Part shown: positions 6,330-28,527 of the stretch, piece after piece | How positions within the stretch are numbered: position 1 is the stretch's first letter | How the letters are laid out: each line of letters opens with the position of its first letter | From: a virus | Direction: 5' to 3' (one strand) | Length of the DNA stretch: 64,000 bases | IMG/VR virus record: IMGVR_UViG_3300005098_000013 | Coordinates: 1 to 64,000 of that record | Program-made: the position numbers and the translations under genes | The notes under the pieces: generated by a model | Seen by the model: only the letters and a program-made list of their open reading frames with translations | What the model was told of the DNA's origin: nothing | Databases searched by the model: none

Positions 6330-6770
6330 ATGGAAGAAATGAAAGAAAGATTTGAGAAGGGAGTGTTGAACAGACTAGATGCAGGTCAAATAGAGCAGAT
6401 GTTCGAAGGAGCGGGGCTGAGAGAGAAGCAATGGGAAGATTGTGATGCAAGCGACGTGTACGCGATGCTAAAGTATTTGCGGGGTGTGAAGGAGTTACAA
6501 GGAGAGCCTATATGGGATGAGTTGAAAGCAGCAATAGATGAAGCGGAGAAAGCAGATGCATGCTGGAAAATAAGCGATGAAGAGATAGGGGACTATATGT
6601 GTTGCTTCCCATATGCAGGTTATCCGAAGAAGTTAAGTAAGTTTGTGAAGGAGCATGTGAAGGACGAGTTTGAACAAGACGAAGTGATAAATGAATTGAT
6701 TGCAGAAGTGCTGAGTTGGTGGCAGAAAGATTGGAACGCTGGATACATAAAGATGGGAAGCCTGTGCTAG
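6330..6770 (+). CDS. Hypothetical protein
   Basis: AGGAGGT SD. Confidence 0.7.
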   Translation: MEEMKERFEKGVLNRLDAGQIEQMFEGAGLREKQWEDCDASDVYAMLKYLRGVKELQGEPIWDELKAAIDEAEKADACWKISDEEIGDYMCCFPYAGYPKKLSKFVKEHVKDEFEQDEVINELIAEVLSWWQKDWNAGYIKMGSLC

Positions 6771-6785
6771 TTGTATAGATGAAGA

Positions 6786-6820
6786 ACATTAGAAGCACCT
6801 CAGAGTAGGACTTCTAATGT
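6786..6820 (+). promoter_or_regulatory. Conserved-loop hairpin copy 1: ACATTAGAAG-CACCTCAGAGTAGGA-CTTCTAATGT
   Basis: 10-bp perfect stem, intergenic. Confidence 0.85.
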
Positions 6821-7003
6821 ATCAGCCAAGAAAAAAGACTGTAGGAGAAGAGAATATGGAAGAAGGTAGTTTTGTATTTTATAAAGAAGTAATGGAAGTA
6901 GTTCGGAAACACAGAGAAGAGATTGGCAAGTCGATGGAAGAACCTTTGGATGATGAAGAGTTAGAGATGGTCTTAGATAAAGGAAAGGAGATAAGAAAGA
7001 GAA

Positions 7004-7702
7004 ATGGAAAAGAATAGGATAAGTATGCAAGTAAGCATACCGGAAGAGTTAATAGAGGAGTTCGGCGGCATATACGAAGTATTGAACAAAGGAGTAGACA
7101 AAAGATACAATGATTTGGATTGCGAGTTTGAAGAATGTGTGTTGTGCAGCTTGTCTCAGTTTGCAGACACAATATACGAAGAAGAAGGGCAAGAAGATAG
7201 ATTGAAGAAAATAGCAAAAGCGTACGGTTGTTCAGAAGACGTAATTCTGAAAGCAGGATATTTGACTGGCATAGGAAACAAGTGGTGGAATGTTGAGTTC
7301 GAATGTGATGTGAGAGATTTGCATATTGACCCGGATCAGTTTGATGATTCGGTAAGTTGCTGTGGTTTTTATGTAAAGAAGGTTAAACCGGAATGGATCA
7401 CAGCTGCTTTCTTAATTGAATGGAACGATGAGGAGAGGCTAGTTTTGCACAACGAAATAATAATTGGTGAAGAAGTAAGAATGAAACGGATGAAGAAAGG
7501 GGTGAAGTCAACAATGAACTGCAAAGGTGTTTGGGATGAAATACGGAGGATAAAAGCAAAAGGGGTTGATACTAGCAAATTGGAAGAAGAGTTCGATCGT
7601 TTTGAACAAGGATGGGTGGAACACGTTGTAGATTGGCACAGCGCAGATACTTTATGGAGAGACGAGGAAAAAGTAGCGGCTGCTACAATAGGAAACAAAT
7701 GA
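7004..7702 (+). CDS. Paralog family A distant member 3, possibly fused to a second small gene
   Basis: MQVSIP, CVLCS, VEFECD..LHIDPD, FYVKKVKPEWI align with family A. Confidence 0.6.
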   Translation: MEKNRISMQVSIPEELIEEFGGIYEVLNKGVDKRYNDLDCEFEECVLCSLSQFADTIYEEEGQEDRLKKIAKAYGCSEDVILKAGYLTGIGNKWWNVEFECDVRDLHIDPDQFDDSVSCCGFYVKKVKPEWITAAFLIEWNDEERLVLHNEIIIGEEVRMKRMKKGVKSTMNCKGVWDEIRRIKAKGVDTSKLEEEFDRFEQGWVEHVVDWHSADTLWRDEEKVAAATIGNK

Positions 7703-8145
7703 TGATGGACATGTGTGACGTTTGTGGAGAAGTGTTTGATGCGAATAAAGAAGGAGTGGTGCTTGAAAGAGAAGGAAAAAGAGTTGCCTATTGTGAAAAG
7801 CATATGGAAGAAGGCTTTGCAGAAGTGCTTAGAGAAATAGGTTTTGAAGTAAAGAAGCTTTAGGAGGTGAGAAGAAATGGAAAAGAAAAAAGCAAGTGAA
7901 TTGGAAGATCAAGAAGTCGGAGCAGGTTATGTATACTGGAGTAGTATGTACGAAGACCTACTGGAGATGGTTGTAGAGTACCTTGGTGAAGTTGAACACG
8001 CCGGAATAAAACCTAGCGCTGGTGAAGTATCATCAAGTGTAGTTGAAGACGTAGGAGAGTTTGTAGATACCAGAAAGAGGATGCTCAGAAAGGATTTTTT
8101 AGAGTATTGGAACGAAAACGTTTGAGGTCTCCGAAAAGCAAGGCG

Positions 8146-8178
8146 CTGCTAAAGCACCTCAGAGTAGGACTTTAGCAG
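8146..8178 (+). promoter_or_regulatory. Conserved-loop hairpin copy 2: CTGCTAAAG-CACCTCAGAGTAGGA-CTTTAGCAG
   Basis: 9-bp perfect stem, intergenic, just before SD. Confidence 0.85.
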
Positions 8179-9473
8179 AATGGAGGTGAGAAAAGAATGA
8201 AAGAAGATAAGGAGAGAATGGAAGAAGACAGAAATTTTTTTGAGAGGATAGAGGAATATAGAGAAGACGAAAAGCCAACTGAAGAGGAGATTAGAACAAC
8301 GGAAAAGGTTCTGAAGTATGCAGCGCAATGCAATTACATAGGTTTCAGTACAGAAGATGCGATAGATGTAATGCAAAGAAGCACAAATATTCTCAAGTGG
8401 AATTTTGGATACTGGGGGAAAAAGAAGAATGATAGGGGGAAACAGAGAAGTTGATGTATGACTTTCTGAAATGGTTAGCTGAGGAAAGTCACAAAGAACT
8501 TGAAAGAAGGAGCGAAGAATTAGGAGGTGTAATTGGAAGAAATGAAAAACGAAAGAACAATAGAGGTGCCGTATAGTGAAGCAGGCAGTTTGGAAGAGGC
8601 AGTGTGGAGATTAAGAGTACATGATGGAGAAGGTTGGTTCGATGCGGATAAGCAAGTGATGGTATTGGTAGAGTAGAGGTGAGAAAATATGAAAGAAGAA
8701 GAGTTAGAGATAGTGTATAAAGCAATAGAGGCACATGGAGACAGCTTTTGGAATGACCCTAGCGAAGGCAATGAGAAGGACGGAAACTGGAATGGATATT
8801 TGTTCGAAGAGATTCTGGATATGTTAGAGAAGGACGGCTATGAACTAAAGTTAGTAAAGAAGCACGAAAGAAAATAGAAAAAAAAAAGAAGATGAGGCAC
8901 GAAGAAATAGAATTGAAGGTGCTTGTTAAGGTGCACATAGATGATTCGAACGAAGGTGAATTCGAAGACATAACTGATGAGTTTACCTTTTTTGAAGGGA
9001 TAGCAATAGCTTATCTTGTGCGGCAAGCCTTAACGAGAGATAAAATGGAAAATGAAAGACTATGGGAAACATAAAAAAAAATTAGGAGGAGAACAGATTA
9101 TGATAGAAATAATAATAGCGGTTGGGATTCCGCTGTTTCTATTCGGAATGCTAATAGGACTGGCAATTGGACAACATAGTGTATGGAAAGGTTTGAGAAG
9201 GGATAGAGAGGTAGTAATAGACAATTGGAAATATACAGCTGATCTAATAGAGAAGGAGTGAAGACTATGGGAAAAATAAGAGGAAACGGATTGAGCGTTG
9301 CTTTGGAAGCGAAAAGGCTAGGTAAAGTGCTTGAACTGACAGAAGTTGAGACGTTAGGTGAAGGCGTAGTTGATGAGCTAAGAGAGCTGGAAAGCACAAT
9401 TGATGCAGTAGTGCAAAGCTGGTATAGGTTAAGAGAAGAGGAACTTTGCAGGGAAGCATAGTGGAGAAGGTAA

Positions 9474-9506
9474 CTGTCAGAACACCTCAGAGAAGGATTC
9501 TGACAG
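9474..9506 (+). promoter_or_regulatory. Conserved-loop hairpin copy 3: CTGTCAGAA-CACCTCAGAGAAGGA-TTCTGACAG
   Basis: 9-bp perfect stem, intergenic. Confidence 0.85.
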
Positions 9507-9921
9507 CATTGCTTCCACTTAAAGGAAGCATAAAGAAACTAGGAGGAAAGAAATGGAAAAACTAAAGTGTGATAGATGCGGAACAGAATATAGTGACAAG
9601 GAGAGTATAGCAAGTGCAAAGGCACACGAAGAAGAATGGAAAAAGTTGTGCAGAAAAGATGGAGTAGAGCCAAGAGGCTTAGCACCGTGCCCGAACATAA
9701 CGTGCAGAGGAGAATTGCAATTGATAGAAGAGGCTTAGGGAAAATGGCAAGAGTTAGAATAGAAAACAAAAAGGAAGCGTACCAGGAAAAAGCAGAAGAG
9801 ATTGCACAGAGAAGGTATAGAAAGCGATTTGGAGAGTTGAGTGGTATACAGAAGGATGTAGTATATATGATGGCAGTAAAGTTGGTAAGAGAAGCAGAAG
9901 CTTTAGGAGGAAAGAAAAAGA

Positions 9922-10386
9922 ATGAGTGAAGAGGAAGAAGTGAAGGTGCCAAGTCTTGATGAGTTGGATGCTTTGGCAACCGAACTACATGAGAAATATA
10001 AGGTGTATGTTCGTTTGGAAAAAGCATTTTATGCATATGATGAACCAAACATGAAATTAGTGGCAATGTTAGAAGGAGATAATAAATCAGGAAAGGAGAT
10101 CAAGGAAAAGGTAGAGAAGTTCTTTGGAGTAAAGCTAAAAGCGAAAAAGGAAGTGCTGGCAGAAGGAATGATAGAATTCAGCTACGAATCACCTAAGCTT
10201 TCGGTGAGACTAGATAAAGCAATGACATGTGAAAAGGTTGGCACAGAGACGAAGGAAGTTGAGTATAAGGTAGAGATAAGCCCCGGTAAGGAGCCAGTAA
10301 TGGAAACAAGAAAGAAAATGGTAGAGGTGCCGGTGTATAAGTGCACAGAAGCTGATATAGAGTTCAGAGGAGAGCCTGAGGAATGA
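9922..10386 (+). CDS. Hypothetical protein
   Basis: SD, overlaps neighbours by ATGA-type coupling. Confidence 0.7.
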   Translation: MSEEEEVKVPSLDELDALATELHEKYKVYVRLEKAFYAYDEPNMKLVAMLEGDNKSGKEIKEKVEKFFGVKLKAKKEVLAEGMIEFSYESPKLSVRLDKAMTCEKVGTETKEVEYKVEISPGKEPVMETRKKMVEVPVYKCTEADIEFRGEPEE

Positions 10387-10598
10387 GTACAGATTTGTAT
10401 GAAAGGAACGGTGTTTGCCTAACGAGATATTGGGGCGGAGAAGAGAAAGGAGTGTGCTACCAGTTGACTTTGGAAGGAAAGAATGAGATTTTGTTTGAAG
10501 GAGAACAGGTTGTATATAAGCAGTTTACAGCAAAGGAAATTAGGCAACTGGTCAATGGCTTGTCAAATATATTAAAAGAAACTGACAGCTGGGACTAG
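10383..10598 (+). CDS. Paralog family B member (single domain)
   Basis: Y.RNG..LTRY...GVCYQL...FT..E..QLV matches N-terminus of 12461-12910. Confidence 0.7.
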   Translation: MSTDLYERNGVCLTRYWGGEEKGVCYQLTLEGKNEILFEGEQVVYKQFTAKEIRQLVNGLSNILKETDSWD

Positions 10599-11004
10599 AG
10601 GTGATGAAGTATGTGTATAGATGTAGAGTTTGTAAAAGGTTTGTTGAAGCATATGATCGACAAGCTGGACGATGCAAAGTTGACGGTTGCTGAAGGAGAG
10701 TCATTGATGATCATAGAACAACAGCTAGGTGAAGCAGTGAAAACGTATGAGTTACTAAGAGAACATATGAAAGGTGCGTATACTAGCGAAGGAGAAGTTG
10801 ATTGGGATGCGTTAGTGCATAGTTTGCTTTAGGGGGTGAGGAAAGAAATGGGCTTAGGAGCAGAAAGGTATCTGAGATATGCAGACGCAATAGCAGAAAT
10901 GGTGATAGAGAACGGAGTGAACGAAGACAATGAAATAGTAGTAGAATTGATGAATGCAATAGACGTGCTAAGAAAAGAGACGAAGGTACCTGTATAGTAT
11001 AGAA

Positions 11005-11043
11005 GTGTGCAGAGAACACCTCGGAGAAGGATTCTCTGCATAT
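11005..11043 (+). promoter_or_regulatory. Conserved-loop hairpin copy 4: GTGTGCAGAGAA-CACCTCGGAGAAGGA-TTCTCTGCATAT
   Basis: 12-bp stem with two G-U pairs, intergenic. Confidence 0.85.
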
Positions 11044-11508
11044 GCCTCAAAAGCTGAGGTTTAGGAGGGAAAAATGGAAGAAGAAATGAATGAGTTGGAT
11101 GTGGAAGCAAAGGAACAGATCAGTAACCTCATGGAAGCTATTGAACATGTAGAAAGCAAAGAAGAGCAGACGCGGACTGCACTGACAGTTAGTACAGTGC
11201 TTGTAGCAAGATTTGCTGGCAGTTTGTATGCAGCTATAGGAGCATGCGAAGCTATAAAGAAAGCACTAATGGAACTTGGAAAAGAATTATATAAGTAAAG
11301 AAAAGGGAGCCAAGGAAAAATGACTAAGCTGAAAGTATGCTTTGAAATAGAAGGCGACGGAATAAGTGACGATGTACTATTGGACAGAGAATCGCTGGAA
11401 CAAACTATCATGTTTGAATTGGACAAAGAATCAGGAAACAACTACTATCATCGAGTGTATACGACTGTAACAAACTTGAAAGTAGAAGAGATAAACTAGG
11501 ATGGAAAA

Positions 11509-15876: not shown

Positions 15877-15915
15877 TGGGCTTGCGTTTTTAAGCAAGCC
15901 CAATGTTTTTTTTTT
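15877..15915 (+). terminator. Hairpin (TGGGCTTGC/GCAAGCCCA) followed by T10
   Basis: Seen directly after stop of 15577-15855. Confidence 0.7.
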
Positions 15916-16454: not shown

Positions 16455-17105
16455 AGTATTTGCAACGTTGGCCTTTTGGATTTGCATACTGCTAACTGTG
16501 CTAGCGATTATAATTTCAGGCATATACATTGCAGCATGGTTAGTTGACAAGATATGCATTTCGATTGACAAAATGCTTAGCGAGGAGAAGAAGTGAATGA
16601 TGTGCTGCTGCTTTGCATAGGTATCTTTGGTTGCGGAGCCTTCCTTATAACTATAGGGCCTTGGCTAGTCTACACAATCTTAACTGCAATAGAGGCTCTG
16701 ATTGCTACGGAAGGCGATTTTAAAGTTAGTGAGCCTACGGATAATGTAGATGGGTTGGAAGAGGTTCTGGTTGGCTCAGGTGACAAGGAAGCAATGAGGC
16801 CTACTAGGAGAGCAATTAGGAGAGGCATTGTGAGTGGAGGTGAAAAGATGAGACCAATGAAGCGTGTAACAAATGTAAAAGAGAAGAGGAAGTAAATGAA
16901 AAAAAGAGAGTATGATGTTGTAGCAAAGGCAGTAGAGCCGCCGATTAGAGTGTATTGGAGAGCTAAAGAAGGAGATGAGCTTTCTTATGACGACGCTTAT
17001 ACTATGGAAGATGCAGAACGTATGAGAGATGAGCTTATTGGAGCAGACTTCATAGATGTAGAAATTGTTGTCAAAGGAAAAGATAAGGTGTAGGTGTTGT
17101 AAAAG

Positions 17106-17132
17106 TTGGCAAGCTTGTAATTAGCTTGCCAA
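17106..17132. other. Perfect hairpin TTGGCAAGCT/AGCTTGCCAA just upstream of a tRNA-like element
   Basis: Seen directly. Confidence 0.7.
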
Positions 17133-17140
17133 TTTAATTT

Positions 17141-17207
17141 GAGGCAATATGGTAACAAAATAGTAGCCTGTGCTGCTTGAGTGGGAGTTCGACTCTTCCT
17201 TGCCTCA
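17141..17207 (+). ncRNA. tRNA-like element (acceptor GAGGCAA/TTGCCTC, T arm GGGAG-TTCGACT-CTTCC, vestigial D arm, 4-nt anticodon loop)
   Basis: Pairings read from sequence. Confidence 0.7.
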
Positions 17208-22075: not shown

Positions 22076-23623
22076 TTATCCTATTAAACAAACCTTACCT
22101 TCTTCCCTCTTGATTCTCTTCTGCTTCACTAGCCTCCCTATAAGCTCCTCAGACTTTCCATATTGCAAACCAAAGTCAAGCAGCTCATCTTTCAATTCAA
22201 TCTCTCCCATTTCACCTGCTTCCAAAATTCTGACCACCTGCTGCTCTTCTGCACCTCTCGAAATCTGAGTTCTCCATTCCTTTGCAACATTCATAAGCTT
22301 CTGGAGTTCAGGTGTAATGTCTACCTTCAAAACCGAACCAAAATTAGTTGTTGCAATGGTATAGCCAATCCCAAGCCTCTCAAACAACGGCTCAATATAA
22401 TGCGGCACTTTCAGCGTATCAATGCTTTTCATAAACTCATCAGTAAACTTTACACTTCTTAGTTCATCGATTCTTTTCATGACATCTGTTACATCCCAGC
22501 CTATCTTCTTTAGCATTCCTATATCCCCTCTTACTCCTTTGCTGTTCCTCCTACACCACTTTAACTTTTCCTTTTCTGCAACTGACGGAATAAAGTTCAC
22601 AAAGAAAAACCTACGTCCTAATCCAGAGGACAAGTCAAACCTTGTTGGTTGGCTTGCTGCAAACAATGTGATATCAGTGTCGTAGCGTATCTCTCCCGCA
22701 GCTAGCCTCTTTACCAAATGCCCCGAATCCAAAGCTGTAAGCAATGCATTGTCCAGATTGGAGGAATGTTCTTGCTTCATTGCCGTTGTCAACGCCGAAA
22801 ACTCCTCTATCCCCACGATGTAATCTGCATAATCATGCGCGGCTCCGTACGTAATTATTGGCTCGCCGCTATCATCTGTAGCCCTAATTGTCCCGGTAAA
22901 GCCTGCCTCAGTTAAGTTGCCGCTATAGGTTGTCTTTAACTCCGTGCCTCCTAGCGCGCTTGTTGGCCCACTTAGCAACACTTTCAAGATGAATGATTTG
23001 GAATTATGCACTACCAGATTGTTTGCAATGTAGTGTTCCTGAGAAGTTGTGAAGTCAACAGCAGGTCCTTGGCGATACATCTTTGTTCTTTTCGTAACAT
23101 GTGCTGTTGTATAGCCGAGATACATTGGTTTTTTCTTCCATGTCTGAGATTCATGAACCTTCAGTTCATTAGGTGTAAAGGCAGTCACTATCTGGTCCTT
23201 TAGCGTAAGATCTTTAGCATGTTTCCATCCATTTTTGGTTAAAACCCGATGTTGTCCCGAACATTTTAGGCCATGCGGCAGTTCATAATAGTCTACATTA
23301 CTGCGCGTCTTATTCAGAACTATATTTGGCTTGCCATTGATTGATGCTAACCTGTCTCCTACTCGAACGTCTACTGCAGCTTTGTGAATTCCACTTTCCA
23401 TAAGAACAGTTGTAGTTGGAGCAACGCAAAAACCTGGTGGCGCAATGAAGAACATATGTATTCTTAAGTCTGGCACAGCTCCTGCTTCCATGTAAAACTG
23501 ATTCTTCTTGTTTGCCAAATTTGCCAAGTGACAACACACAGCAGTAACATAGTACGGAACGAACGTTTTGACAAAACAAATTTTCCGTGACTCGAGAAAC
23601 TCAAGTACGCTCTGCATTAACAT
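22076..23623 (-). CDS. MCM-like AAA+ helicase domain protein with mini-intein
   Basis: Spliced Walker A APPGFSKS, TEAGFTG, Walker B VGIEEF, AASQP, GRRF Arg finger, C-terminal wHTH. Confidence 0.8.
   Translation of the reverse strand: MLMQSVLEFLESRKICFVKTFVPYYVTAVCCHLANLANKKNQFYMEAGAVPDLRIHMFFIAPPGFCVAPTTTVLMESGIHKAAVDVRVGDRLASINGKPNIVLNKTRSNVDYYELPHGLKCSGQHRVLTKNGWKHAKDLTLKDQIVTAFTPNELKVHESQTWKKKPMYLGYTTAHVTKRTKMYRQGPAVDFTTSQEHYIANNLVVHNSKSFILKVLLSGPTSALGGTELKTTYSGNLTEAGFTGTIRATDDSGEPIITYGAAHDYADYIVGIEEFSALTTAMKQEHSSNLDNALLTALDSGHLVKRLAAGEIRYDTDITLFAASQPTRFDLSSGLGRRFFFVNFIPSVAEKEKLKWCRRNSKGVRGDIGMLKKIGWDVTDVMKRIDELRSVKFTDEFMKSIDTLKVPHYIEPLFERLGIGYTIATTNFGSVLKVDITPELQKLMNVAKEWRTQISRGAEEQQVVRILEAGEMGEIELKDELLDFGLQYGKSEELIGRLVKQKRIKREEGKVCLIG
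23003..23428 (-). mobile_element. Mini-intein (142 aa) in Walker A of MCM-like gene
   Basis: Starts CVAPTT, block B CSGQHRV, ends VVHN followed by Ser. Confidence 0.9.
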
Positions 23624-26262: not shown

Positions 26263-26345
26263 GGCGCGGTGGTTCATAGAGGAAGTAACAGCCGCCTAGT
26301 TCGATACTAGGATGGAAAAATTAGGTTCGAATCCTAACTGCGCCG
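26263..26345 (+). tRNA. Aberrant tRNA-like RNA, extended anticodon arm, loop TTCGATA (nominal CGA/Ser)
   Basis: GGCGCGG/CTGCGCC acceptor, TTAGG-TTCGAAT-CCTAA T arm, CCTAG/CTAGG stem. Confidence 0.65.
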
Positions 26346-26376: not shown

Positions 26377-26447
26377 GGGCGAAAAGCATACGGAGTTGCC
26401 TAGTTCCAACGTACGTGGAAATGCCGGTTCGACTCCGGCTTCGCCCA
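26377..26447 (+). tRNA. Aberrant tRNA-like RNA, loop ACGTACG (nominal GTA/Tyr, lacks U33 and purine 37)
   Basis: GGGCGAA/TTCGCCC acceptor, GCCGG-TTCGACT-CCGGC T arm, TTCCA/TGGAA stem. Confidence 0.65.
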
Positions 26448-26640: not shown

Positions 26641-28527
26641 ATGGGTTGGGATAAGATAAGCGGAAAAAAGGACCAGAAGAGCCCAGAAGAGAAGGATAAG
26701 GAAATAGGAAGTTGGATTACTGCACAACAGAAGATTGAGGTGTCGCCGATTAACTTGGTGGTGTACGGTTTAGATGGTACTTGTAAGAGCAGCGCTTGTA
26801 TAGATATCAGAGAAGCCAACGAGATGGATAAGAAGGTGTTTGTAATTGACATAGACGGATCTGCAGCTCCTATTAAGGAAGCATATTGGAATAATGATGG
26901 GAATATAATGATAGTGGATCCAGTGGAGATAACGGTAGAAGGTGACATTGATTGGATTGCTTCATATAATAGAATTTTAGATACTTGCAAGTGGCTACGC
27001 AAGCATGAGGTTGAGTTGAATCTAAAAGGTGTGGTATTAGATGGCCTAGACACTCTGCTTAAAATATGTGTGGCAGGAGACACTACTATTTATCCGATGG
27101 GTTTGCCGCCAATGAAAATTTCGGAATATGTTGAAACTGGAATGACTGTTCCAATTATGACAAGAAGCGGATATGAAACACCTTTGCGAACTTTTAAGTT
27201 GAAATCCCAATTAATAAAAATAGGCTATGCTTCAGGAGATGAGATTTGTGTAACACCGGACCATCCGTTGCTTGGTACTAGGGAATATTGGAGCAAACTT
27301 GAATTTATACCAGCTTCTGAATTGCAAATCGGTATGAGGTTAGCGGAAATCATGTATGGCCCACAATTTCCATGCTATGGTTATTCTGCAGCAAAGGCAA
27401 AATTTATAGGTATGATGGTTGCGGAAGGGTCAATGACACGCCACTATTCGCCCAAAATTTCAAATAATAAAATTGAACCTGTAGAATTAGCGCTTAAAGA
27501 AGCTTTCCCAGAATGTTATCTTAAACGAGATAGCAAAAATCAATATTCAATTAACTATAGAAAAAACAAAGATGACAAACATAGAAAAAACCCGATGAGA
27601 ACAGAATTGGAACAATTGAAACTTTGGAATTCATATAGCCATACTAAATTTATCCCTGATGTTATAAAATACGGTCCAATTGAGACAATATCTGCTTTTT
27701 TTGACGGATATATTTTTGGTGACGGGTGGCAAACCAAAACAAAAACCGGAAAAAGAATAGGTATGTATACAGTTTCAAAGCAGCTTGCAGAAGACTTAAG
27801 GTTTATTTTATGGAGGCTTGGCAAAAGAACAACTTTATATGTAAACAGATATCACAATGAAGTGGGAAGCAATAAGATGTTTAGCGATTATCAAGCGAGA
27901 ATTGGATACGGTATTAGTGTTGATGAACCGGAAATTGCAAATGTCAAAGGTGACGTACGTCTTAAACCCATAAAAACAATTGAAAGGCTGTCTGGTCTAC
28001 ATGATGTATATGACCTTCAAATGCCATCTGGTAATTTCATAGCAAACAGAATTGTAAATCACAATTGCGAGTACAAAATGAAGGTAGAAGATCTCAAGGT
28101 TAACCCTGCAGCAAGAGTGACCGATTTGTGGTCGTGGCAATTTCGCAACTCTGCTTTCCTTTTGGTAGTGAAGCTCATTAAAGGTCTTAAGTGTGATAGG
28201 CTTTATACGACGCACTTAAAGGAATTGAAAGGATGGGTACAAGAGTCAAAAGGCAAAACTCTAGCCACTACTGGATATGTGCCAGAATATGAAAAATCAA
28301 CGCCAAACTTAATGTTCCAAAAATTAAGTGCAACAAGAAATGATAAGGGAAAAGTTGTGGAGTGGAAGGTAAAGGTTGAAAAGAGCAAGACTAACAGTGC
28401 GCTTGAAGGCAAAGAGTATGAAGTGCTTAGGGTGGATCATGCTAAGGATGAGGTTAGTTGGCATGGCATTAAGGAATTTTTGAGGGAATGCAGACATAAA
28501 GAGGCAGGAAGAAATGAGAGGGTGTAA
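26641..28527 (+). CDS. RecA-like/AAA_24 (Sak4-type) ATPase with intein
   Basis: YGLDGTCKS Walker A, VIDIDG, VVLDGLD, YTTHLK. Confidence 0.75.
   Translation: MGWDKISGKKDQKSPEEKDKEIGSWITAQQKIEVSPINLVVYGLDGTCKSSACIDIREANEMDKKVFVIDIDGSAAPIKEAYWNNDGNIMIVDPVEITVEGDIDWIASYNRILDTCKWLRKHEVELNLKGVVLDGLDTLLKICVAGDTTIYPMGLPPMKISEYVETGMTVPIMTRSGYETPLRTFKLKSQLIKIGYASGDEICVTPDHPLLGTREYWSKLEFIPASELQIGMRLAEIMYGPQFPCYGYSAAKAKFIGMMVAEGSMTRHYSPKISNNKIEPVELALKEAFPECYLKRDSKNQYSINYRKNKDDKHRKNPMRTELEQLKLWNSYSHTKFIPDVIKYGPIETISAFFDGYIFGDGWQTKTKTGKRIGMYTVSKQLAEDLRFILWRLGKRTTLYVNRYHNEVGSNKMFSDYQARIGYGISVDEPEIANVKGDVRLKPIKTIERLSGLHDVYDLQMPSGNFIANRIVNHNCEYKMKVEDLKVNPAARVTDLWSWQFRNSAFLLVVKLIKGLKCDRLYTTHLKELKGWVQESKGKTLATTGYVPEYEKSTPNLMFQKLSATRNDKGKVVEWKVKVEKSKTNSALEGKEYEVLRVDHAKDEVSWHGIKEFLRECRHKEAGRNERV
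27067..28065 (+). mobile_element. Intein (333 aa) with LAGLIDADG homing endonuclease
   Basis: CVAGDT start, VTPDHP, IGMMVAEG and FDGYIFGDG, VYDLQ...VNHN followed by Cys. Confidence 0.92.

Follow-up and report, generated by a model that had tools for sequence, protein, structure and literature searches.

Hairpins in the early region of a tailed virus

The window analysed here is a stretch of 64,000 nucleotides (nt) of viral DNA (positions 1 to 64,000 of IMG/VR virus record IMGVR_UViG_3300005098_000013, which is 78,081 bp long as a whole), and the element under study, H1, is a hairpin that stands four times on the sense strand of its early region, between small, tightly packed + strand genes (Table 1). 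The record is that of a tailed virus with a family B DNA polymerase, inteins, a tape-measure protein and an Mtd-like tail protein; it also encodes a preQ0 pathway (QueC, FolE2 and a radical-SAM QueE-like protein) and an ERCC4-type nuclease, and the GC content of the window is 0.40. Because the polymerase has its cellular relatives, about 25% identical to it, among archaea (DPANN lineages and Methanobacterium), the host is likely to be archaeal as judged from sequence; closer relatives of the polymerase, at 62-88% identity, lie on metagenome contigs, with those on ENA/Logan contigs at 62-83%. The H1 region encodes numerous small unknown proteins, among them a zinc-ribbon-like one of 61 aa directly after copy 3. 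The region had no blastn match in 50,697 phage records, a 232-aa early protein had no match in IMG/VR, and the same protein read from its second ATG (225 aa) had no homologue among 5.8 billion proteins.

The initial annotation had described hairpins that punctuate an early operon, and the organisation of the region fits this description. The four copies lie in one long array of + strand genes, within which a hairpin followed by U10 is the sole terminator-like site on the + strand between 2.0 and 20.4 kb, and sigma-70-like sites on that strand of the same interval occur at chance level only. The terminator-like site likely marks the end of the transcription unit that holds the four copies and, since it is the only one, they probably belong to one long transcription unit, a single operon.

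Four + strand hairpins with a common core, on stems that differ in sequence but stay paired and that include G-U pairs in the fourth copy, had been reported before, and both a core scan and a covariance model confirm them. Allowing up to two mismatches, the core CACCTCRGAGWAGGA occurs in the window at exactly four sites, all on the + strand (6796, 8155, 9483 and 11017), and the whole record holds no further copy; dinucleotide-preserving shuffles give a mean of 0.28 core matches, and none of 100 reached four. The covariance model, run with filters off, returned only the same four copies, at 43-51 bits, the next match scoring 11 bits. The apex reads CACCUCRGAGWAGGA in the window and is carried by mutually unrelated outer stems of 9-12 bp (ACAUUAGAAG, CUGCUAAAG, CUGUCAGAA and GUGUGCAGAGAA), each directly flanking the core and each pairing with its partner; two of the pairs in the copy 4 stem (GUGUGCAGAGAA) are G-U. 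All four fold as had been annotated, and three of them are clearly more stable than shuffles, copy 1 at -13.9 kcal/mol; the inner CCU/AGG stem and the hexaloop, invariant in the window, are a folding prediction only.

Successive copies are 1359, 1328 and 1534 nt apart, in agreement with the 1.3-1.5 kb given earlier, and each lies upstream of the next gene in a non-coding gap of 71-91 nt between a stop codon and the following Shine-Dalgarno (SD) sequence. The helix starts 8-21 nt past the upstream stop codon and its last base lies some 6-35 nt ahead of the next SD. Copy 1 is bounded by a stop at 6770 and an SD/ATG at 6856; the SD of copy 2, GGAGGUG, starts 4 nt past the helix; copy 3 is followed by CAUUG and a second small hairpin (9512-9528), and copy 4 by a second small hairpin (11045-11061) and then an SD. 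Neither a U-tract nor a promoter-like site was found on the copies, nor is there an upstream word common to all four. Start-codon-like triplets directly after the helix (AUG, UUG, AUU) were considered and set aside, their frame and spacing being inconsistent.

Table 1. Features of the window, followed by the four further viral records that carry H1
Feature	Positions	Strand	Description
H1 copy 1	6786-6820	+	10-bp outer stem (6786-6795 with 6811-6820); apex CACCUCAGAGUAGGA (6796-6810); z -3.45; 50.8 bits
H1 copy 2	8146-8178	+	9-bp stem; apex CACCUCAGAGUAGGA (8155-8169); 45.0 bits
H1 copy 3	9474-9506	+	9-bp stem; apex CACCUCAGAGAAGGA (9483-9497); z -3.36; 46.2 bits
H1 copy 4	11005-11043	+	12-bp stem; apex CACCUCGGAGAAGGA (11017-11031); z -3.84; 43.4 bits
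Terminator-like site	15877-15915	+	hairpin followed by U10
tRNA-like element	17141-17207	+	7-bp acceptor stem; T-arm GGGAG/UUCGACU/CUUCC; aberrant D and anticodon arms
G001			GC 0.51; four tandem hairpin-plus-small-hairpin modules
G002			GC 0.44; one H1 copy
G003			GC 0.70; two H1 copies, one with a variant apex
G004			GC 0.69; one H1 copy

H1 is an RNA structure under selection

H1 is a cis-acting RNA hairpin under selection and a member of a widespread, uncatalogued viral family. Scans of IMG/VR with the core word returned, besides chance matches, more than 100 contigs in which the same 15 nt are carried by a differing 10-bp stem. Since these first scans fixed the core, statements on conservation drawn from them are biased, and cyanophage capsid leaders were then fetched through GCCGTCTAGACGGTGGGA, a conserved word that lies 60-95 nt downstream in those leaders.

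The evidence for selection on the structure, which the initial annotation had proposed from the window copies, comes from covariation. Across 47 diverse H1 sequences 94.8% of cells are paired, as against 72.6% in shuffles; ten of ten outer-stem pairs change on both sides, and sliding the partner strand by 1-3 columns lowers pairing to 45-60%. Read on the sense strand, roughly 14% of the stem pairs (105 of 753) are wobble pairs (G-U or U-G); on the opposite strand the same positions would be A-C, so the folded molecule is the sense RNA. The helix is also of fixed length, namely ten layers: among 147 distinct hairpins, layers 1-5, on the apex side, pair in 98-100% and layers 8-10 in 82-92%, and layer 11 pairs in 15%.

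The apex is nearly fixed across the family, with the consensus CACCUC-RRWGWM-GGA. Its first six bases (CACCUC), G23 and the closing GGA are essentially constant in the 147 hairpins, and variation is found at positions 20-22, 24 and 25 (R, R, W, W and M). The CCT/AGG stem with hexaloop that had been annotated within the core stands as a predicted fold, but its third pair does not: this pair is U-C in 51 of the 147 (about one third) and in 53 of 54 leaders fetched without use of the apex, and most cyanophage copies are GUCGGA variants with this U-C combination; the inner stem is thus constant only at CC/GG. The apexes of the 54 unbiased leaders are CACCUCAGAGUCGGA in 33, CACCUCAGUGUCGGA in 16 and a few others in the rest.

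Carriers of H1

Most carriers are marine T7-like cyanophages, in which a single copy precedes the major capsid gene by about 140-150 nt; cultured members of this group with H1 are S-RIP2, 9515-10a and S-CBP1. The covariance model found four further viral records (G001 to G004, Table 1), two of which, G003 and G004, are actinophage-like, with portal proteins closest to those of Mycobacterium, Gordonia and Streptomyces phages. The suggestion that H1 is peculiar to archaeal viruses therefore does not hold, since most carriers are bacteriophages and the host of the window virus is only probably archaeal. The orientation of H1 relative to the genes is the same in every case.

The exact 17-mer GCACCTCAGAGTAGGAC, taken from the commonest form of the apex, has four matches in 185,579 representative prokaryote genomes, and the one match that is a hairpin lies on a misbinned cyanophage contig; this result, together with stems that are unrelated between copies, led us to reject a repeat of the miniature inverted-repeat transposable element or repetitive extragenic palindrome type. 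A blastn search with the 41-nt H1 against the 50,697 phage records gave chance matches inside genes only, and a metagenome scan with AACACCTCRGAGAAGGATT gave 22 loci of which none was in hairpin context, the matches being coding 24-nt repeats and an unrelated dispersed repeat. The latter, CCTCAAAAAAACACCTCAGAGAAGGATTCCCCTT (L393, L401, L403 and L405, on ENA and other metagenome contigs), shares the 15-nt word without the hairpin context; in L395, L400 and L411 the word lies inside 24-nt tandem coding-like repeats unrelated to H1. The literature yielded no description of H1, full-text matches to the motif words being primer coincidences only.

A check against Rfam, as the initial annotation had advised, found no family: at gathering score Rfam 15 places none on H1 in the window; at E<=10 over positions 6700-11100 nothing falls on copies 1-3, and copy 4 has only a generic microRNA-precursor hairpin match (E 8.5); and on H1 in the cyanophage loci there was nothing at gathering score or at E<=1. 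These searches bear on whether H1 could itself be catalytic or sense a ligand, as a very small self-cleaving RNA or a minimal aptamer. An apex that does not vary with the host is typical of ribozyme cores and aptamers, and phages often place self-cleaving RNAs between genes and beside tRNAs; yet one hairpin, some 41 nt long and with only a small internal loop, is a poor scaffold for an active site or a binding pocket, window copies 1 and 2 have no second conserved strand beside them, and H1 resembles no ribozyme or riboswitch family of Rfam 15, so that we consider this explanation very improbable. Likenesses to hammerhead, pistol and hairpin ribozymes, and to the 3' end of 16S rRNA (CACCUC), loop E of 5S rRNA (AGAGUAGG), the sarcin-ricin loop and K-turns, were also examined, and none of them fits the variable positions of H1.

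A comparison of the proteins of G001 to G004, the window virus and S-RIP2 by blastp (E 1e-3) found nothing common to them beyond the synteny of G003 with G004, tail-fibre-like matches and a transposase. Because the apex barely changes among carriers that have no detectable protein in common, its reader is most likely a universal cellular machine and not a virus-encoded factor. This consideration weighs on the idea that H1 is the docking site of a dedicated regulatory protein, either an antitermination factor of the nut/boxB kind or a protein that binds a translational operator of the gene downstream. Hairpins bound by proteins classically combine a fixed loop with a variable stem, the window copies stand at the head of gene groups in the early operon, and the many small unknown proteins encoded nearby, including the zinc-ribbon-like one, would offer candidate partners; but a viral partner that had diverged past detection should have changed the loop too, whereas the apex is nearly identical between carriers, and the cyanophages have their single copy before a late capsid gene and not in an early operon. 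With no boxA-like word, no terminators between the copies and a loop geometry unlike that of boxB, a dedicated regulator seems to us clearly unlikely.

Some records show H1 in modular surroundings. In G001:3000-3400 (equivalent to L014:1250-1660) the four modules are spaced at 110-121 nt, each consisting of H1, AUU, a small hairpin with a GAAA or GAAAU loop and AAACAC. The modules differ from one another in compensatory ways, and downstream of them is a gene for a 205-aa protein of unknown function (phrog_4652). Comparison of G003:35300-36179 (minus strand) with G004:7900-8600 reveals a difference of one 70-aa gene bounded by H1-family hairpins, and each of the two records repeats its own ribosome-binding leader of about 50 nt ahead of two genes, which suggests modular cassette exchange in their early region. 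Such arrangements (the tandem modules, the flanked gene and the repeated leaders) are what one would expect if H1 acted on DNA, as a gene-cassette boundary or recombination site comparable to the promoter-stem-loop cassettes of T4-type phages or to attC. Against this stand the G-U pairs, which occupy 14% of stem positions on the sense strand only, the position of the G003/G004 junction outside the apex, the lack of any recombinase common to the carriers, and the constant orientation relative to the genes, and we give a role in DNA only a slim chance.

H1 shares its slot with tRNAs and tRNA-like elements

A relationship between H1 and tRNAs, the main result here, is evident from the cyanophage capsid leaders. 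Among 98 newly fetched leaders, H1 is present in 54 and an element with a T-arm in 44, and none has both; 22 further rows of the anchor scan, which had been fetched earlier through the apex pattern and are outside the 98, also have H1. The T-arm elements lie exactly at the place of H1, and their stem-loop has a loop sequence of the T-loop type (UUCGAUU, UGCAAGU and similar). Canonical tRNAs account for four of the 44 (Leu-AAG twice and Gly-UCC twice) and end where the leader begins, and the remaining 40 are non-canonical and tRNA-like; in the few of these that were parsed by eye the acceptor stem has 4-6 bp and is accompanied by a single small arm and a T-arm, whose loop is often UGCAAKU. The tRNA-like form is found directly upstream of the capsid leader in P-SSP7 (L389:620-685) and S-TIP37 (L390:660-705). 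ARAGORN did not call the tRNA-like elements of the leaders, and the four that were tried had no Rfam tRNA match at E<=1.

The two kinds of element are also joined to the leader in a corresponding manner. The leader word UUGGC begins 8-9 nt past the T stem, a distance that equals the 3' strand of the acceptor plus the discriminator, and in most of the H1 copies read it begins one nt past the ten-layer helix, that nt being A in 59%. The equivalence recurs independently in the actinophage-like records and in the window. In G003 the same leader of about 50 nt, with its ribosome-binding site, follows the 3' end of a tRNA-like element once and H1 once, and in G004 a tRNA-like element lies 525 nt upstream of H1. 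The window virus, too, has a tRNA-like element in the same + strand gene array as H1 (Table 1), which adjoins the SD AAUGAGGUGAGAAAAAGAAAUG just as H1 copy 2 adjoins its SD; it was matched by a T-arm/acceptor scan and, at 25.0 bits as compared with a cut-off of 29 (E 0.0037 in a search of 301 nt), by the Rfam tRNA model, and was not called by ARAGORN. H1 is positionally interchangeable with tRNAs and tRNA-like elements and, judged by the slot, the discriminator-like spacing and the G003 leader, it takes the position of a tRNA at these junctions.

The interchange might instead mean that any sufficiently stable structure will do in the slot, H1 being a passive element (an exonuclease block at a 3' end, a 5' stabiliser or a folding insulator between translation units) or a site for a nuclease guided by double-stranded RNA or by stems, of the ribonuclease (RNase) III or RNase E type. 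A stable hairpin between a stop codon and the next SD is what such a role calls for, a tRNA or tRNA-like element would be just as suitable a stable structure in this position, and T7 uses RNase III hairpins in the same way. None of these roles needs a 15-nt apex that stays constant across cyanophages, actinophages and the window virus, however, or a helix that ends exactly at layer 10. For RNase III in particular a helix of 10+3 bp is short, and RNase III and RNase E are absent from most archaea, where the cellular relatives of the window virus polymerase are found. We regard a passive or RNase III-type element as unlikely, though worth keeping in mind.

Several other features were observed around the slot elements. 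In T7-like cyanophages the capsid gene is preceded by a leader of about 100 nt that is conserved and structured (P-SSP7 L389:600-760, L390, L391, L392 and about 150 IMG/VR loci), with UUGGCN...NGCC around a small hairpin with a UACG-type loop, followed by GCCGUCUAGACGGUG and a GUG/CAC hairpin; several of its stems covary (GGCA/UGCC, GGCU/AGCC, GACU/AGUC), and Rfam gave no match to it. Just upstream of the slot element, many cyanophages have a Glutamine-II riboswitch and a short 'downstream peptide' open reading frame (ORF) (L389:520-600, L392:425-515, L316:243-301 and others), so that the order is riboswitch, mini-ORF, slot element, leader and capsid gene. Syn5 (L245:19800-19890) is without H1 and has a T-arm-like GGGUUCGAUUCCC, not called by ARAGORN, about 130 nt upstream of its capsid gene.

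Further structures and domains lie elsewhere in the window. A strong 13-bp hairpin, AAGUUGGCAAGCU...AGCUUGCCAAUUU, stands at 17103-17135, immediately upstream of the tRNA-like element, and a tRNA-Leu called by ARAGORN at 26263-26345 is followed by an acceptor/T-arm element at 26377-26447 (GGGCGAA...UUCGCCC, T-loop UUCGACU) that ARAGORN did not call. Intein-like domains occur in the proteins encoded at 22076-23623 (- strand) and 26641-28527 (+ strand); the latter has a clear intein with a LAGLIDADG endonuclease and the former a weak match to an intein splicing domain, nothing more. Inteins are also present in several relatives of the polymerase.

A candidate processing signal in place of a tRNA

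Since H1 replaces tRNAs and tRNA-like elements at gene-leader junctions, the simplest candidate for its reader is the machinery that processes tRNA ends. The explanation that we favour, tentatively and without holding it to be probable, is that H1 acts in cis as a signal for processing, or 'punctuation', and takes the place of a tRNA. That H1 is cut at all, and by which enzyme, we infer from properties that were observed: its structure, strand, length, distribution and interchangeability in the slot. The H1 helix would be cut at its base by a nuclease that otherwise recognises pre-tRNAs through their acceptor/T-arm helix, candidates being RNase P on the 5' side and, one nt past the 3' side, RNase Z or a functional equivalent. 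In the window virus the early message (~2.3-15.9 kb, 13.6 kb in length) would thereby be split at H1 into units of 1.3-1.5 kb, each downstream unit starting just ahead of its ribosome-binding site and each upstream unit ending in a protective hairpin. Processing had been raised from the outset as one alternative for these hairpins, and the newer evidence favours that part of the proposal, though by way of a likeness to tRNA punctuation and not to RNase III sites.

Several observations weigh against a tRNA substitute. H1 has no T-loop and does not match the Rfam tRNA model; its helix has 10 layers, with 2-3 more in the apex, as compared with 12 in the acceptor/T-arm stack; no CCA follows the helix; and the window copies are without the U-rich 3' flank that is present in cyanophages. 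A likeness of the apex to the tRNA D-arm, examined in 17 tRNAs, was not significant, 21 of 200 shuffled queries being as good, and was rejected. One phage lineage accounts for most of the 147 hairpins, so that the counts do not represent independent events, and the carriers other than cyanophages were found with a pattern that fixes the apex, which makes the invariance of the apex there partly a matter of construction. Sharing of the slot could also reflect a looser need for any stable structure, although such a need would not explain the fixed apex.

A related but distinct explanation, which we judge to be rather unlikely, takes H1 for a new class of minimal functional RNA, in which the 15-nt apex either makes direct contact with a universal cellular machine or is catalytic in its own right. 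H1 could then be the smallest natural tRNA surrogate for RNase P or RNase Z in bacteria and archaea, or a tiny self-cleaving motif in phages of unrelated hosts.

The most informative property of H1 is its interchangeability with tRNAs and tRNA-like elements, the mechanism being what we infer beyond it. If the tRNA-maturation machinery does read H1, a stretch of about 40 nt would suffice to direct precise RNA cutting in cyanobacteria, in actinobacteria and probably in archaea, and nature would thus offer, in H1, a portable signal for processing that is far smaller than a tRNA and useful for multiplexed RNA expression. It would further explain how long early transcripts are organised in phages without RNase III sites, and would assign a concrete role to the many degenerate tRNA-like elements of phages, including those before the capsid gene in model cyanophages such as P-SSP7. 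The presence of H1 in cultured phage-host pairs makes these proposals directly testable.

Comparison with known systems

The initial annotation had likened the hairpins to lambda boxB, and H1 does share with lambda nut an RNA hairpin with a fixed loop and a variable stem in early transcripts. The analogy fails on the particulars. In lambda boxB the stem is 5 bp long and carries a GNRA-like pentaloop; boxB goes together with boxA, lies ahead of terminators and depends on N, and none of these features was found for H1, which has a stem of 9-12 bp and a 15-nt apex. The boxA word CGCUCUUUA, with one mismatch allowed, has 12 matches in the 64 kb as against 18 expected, with none between 6 and 12 kb and those on the + strand all beyond 52 kb. 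The blastp search found no N-like partner common to the carriers, although short arginine-rich proteins can escape blastp. An intrinsic terminator was also rejected, there being no terminator-like call at any H1 copy.

Hairpin promoters of the N4 type were a second analogy. The promoters of the N4 virion RNA polymerase are, like H1, small hairpins with conserved loop-proximal bases upstream of early genes, but they form in DNA, on the template strand, have 5-7 bp and a 3-nt loop, and are recognised by a giant T7-like polymerase, whereas the wobble pairs of H1 are on the coding strand. This analogy, too, is not borne out, as no T7/N4-type RNA polymerase domain was found. We set aside a T7-type RNA polymerase as the common partner because PF00940 was found in none of five carriers (G000-G004), which is weak evidence since the records are incomplete and the control genomes were also without a match. 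The word that follows H1 in cyanophages was considered as a promoter of the Syn5 phage type (ATTGGGCACCCGTAA, which occurs twice in Syn5) and rejected: GGCN/NGCC covaries there, which indicates RNA pairing in that stretch.

The promoter-early stem-loop (PeSL) cassettes that Arbiol and co-workers reportedly described in T4-type phages in 2010 resemble H1 in that stem-loop modules recur where small early gene cassettes meet, and the G003/G004 indel looks similar. In PeSLs the whole DNA segment, promoter included, is conserved within a phage group; H1, unlike them, keeps the apex alone, covaries as RNA and spans unrelated virus groups.

The RNase III hairpins of the T7 early region (R0.3, R0.5, R1, R1.1 and R1.3) are likewise placed between the genes of a long early transcript and upstream of the next ribosome-binding site. 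They are helices of about 20 bp with an internal loop, read as double-stranded RNA, and have no loop sequence common to distant phages. H1 has about half that length, and its apex is maintained in a range of hosts, some of them from lineages that lack RNase III; a T7-type RNase III site was rejected on the grounds that the helix stops at layer 10 in the 147 hairpins and that the sequence of the apex is conserved.

The remaining comparison is with tRNA punctuation and with the 't-elements' of mitochondria, described by Forner et al. (2007; PMC1920247) as tRNA-like stems defining mRNA ends. H1 differs from t-elements in having no T-loop or cloverleaf remnant, in its own fixed 15-nt apex and 10-layer helix, in its occurrence so far in viruses only and in that its cleavage is putative. 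As in those systems, H1 is a compact helix between the coding units of a polycistronic RNA and is interchangeable with true tRNAs; and, as in tRNA punctuation, whose readers RNase P and RNase Z are universal, the next unit starts right past a discriminator-like nucleotide.

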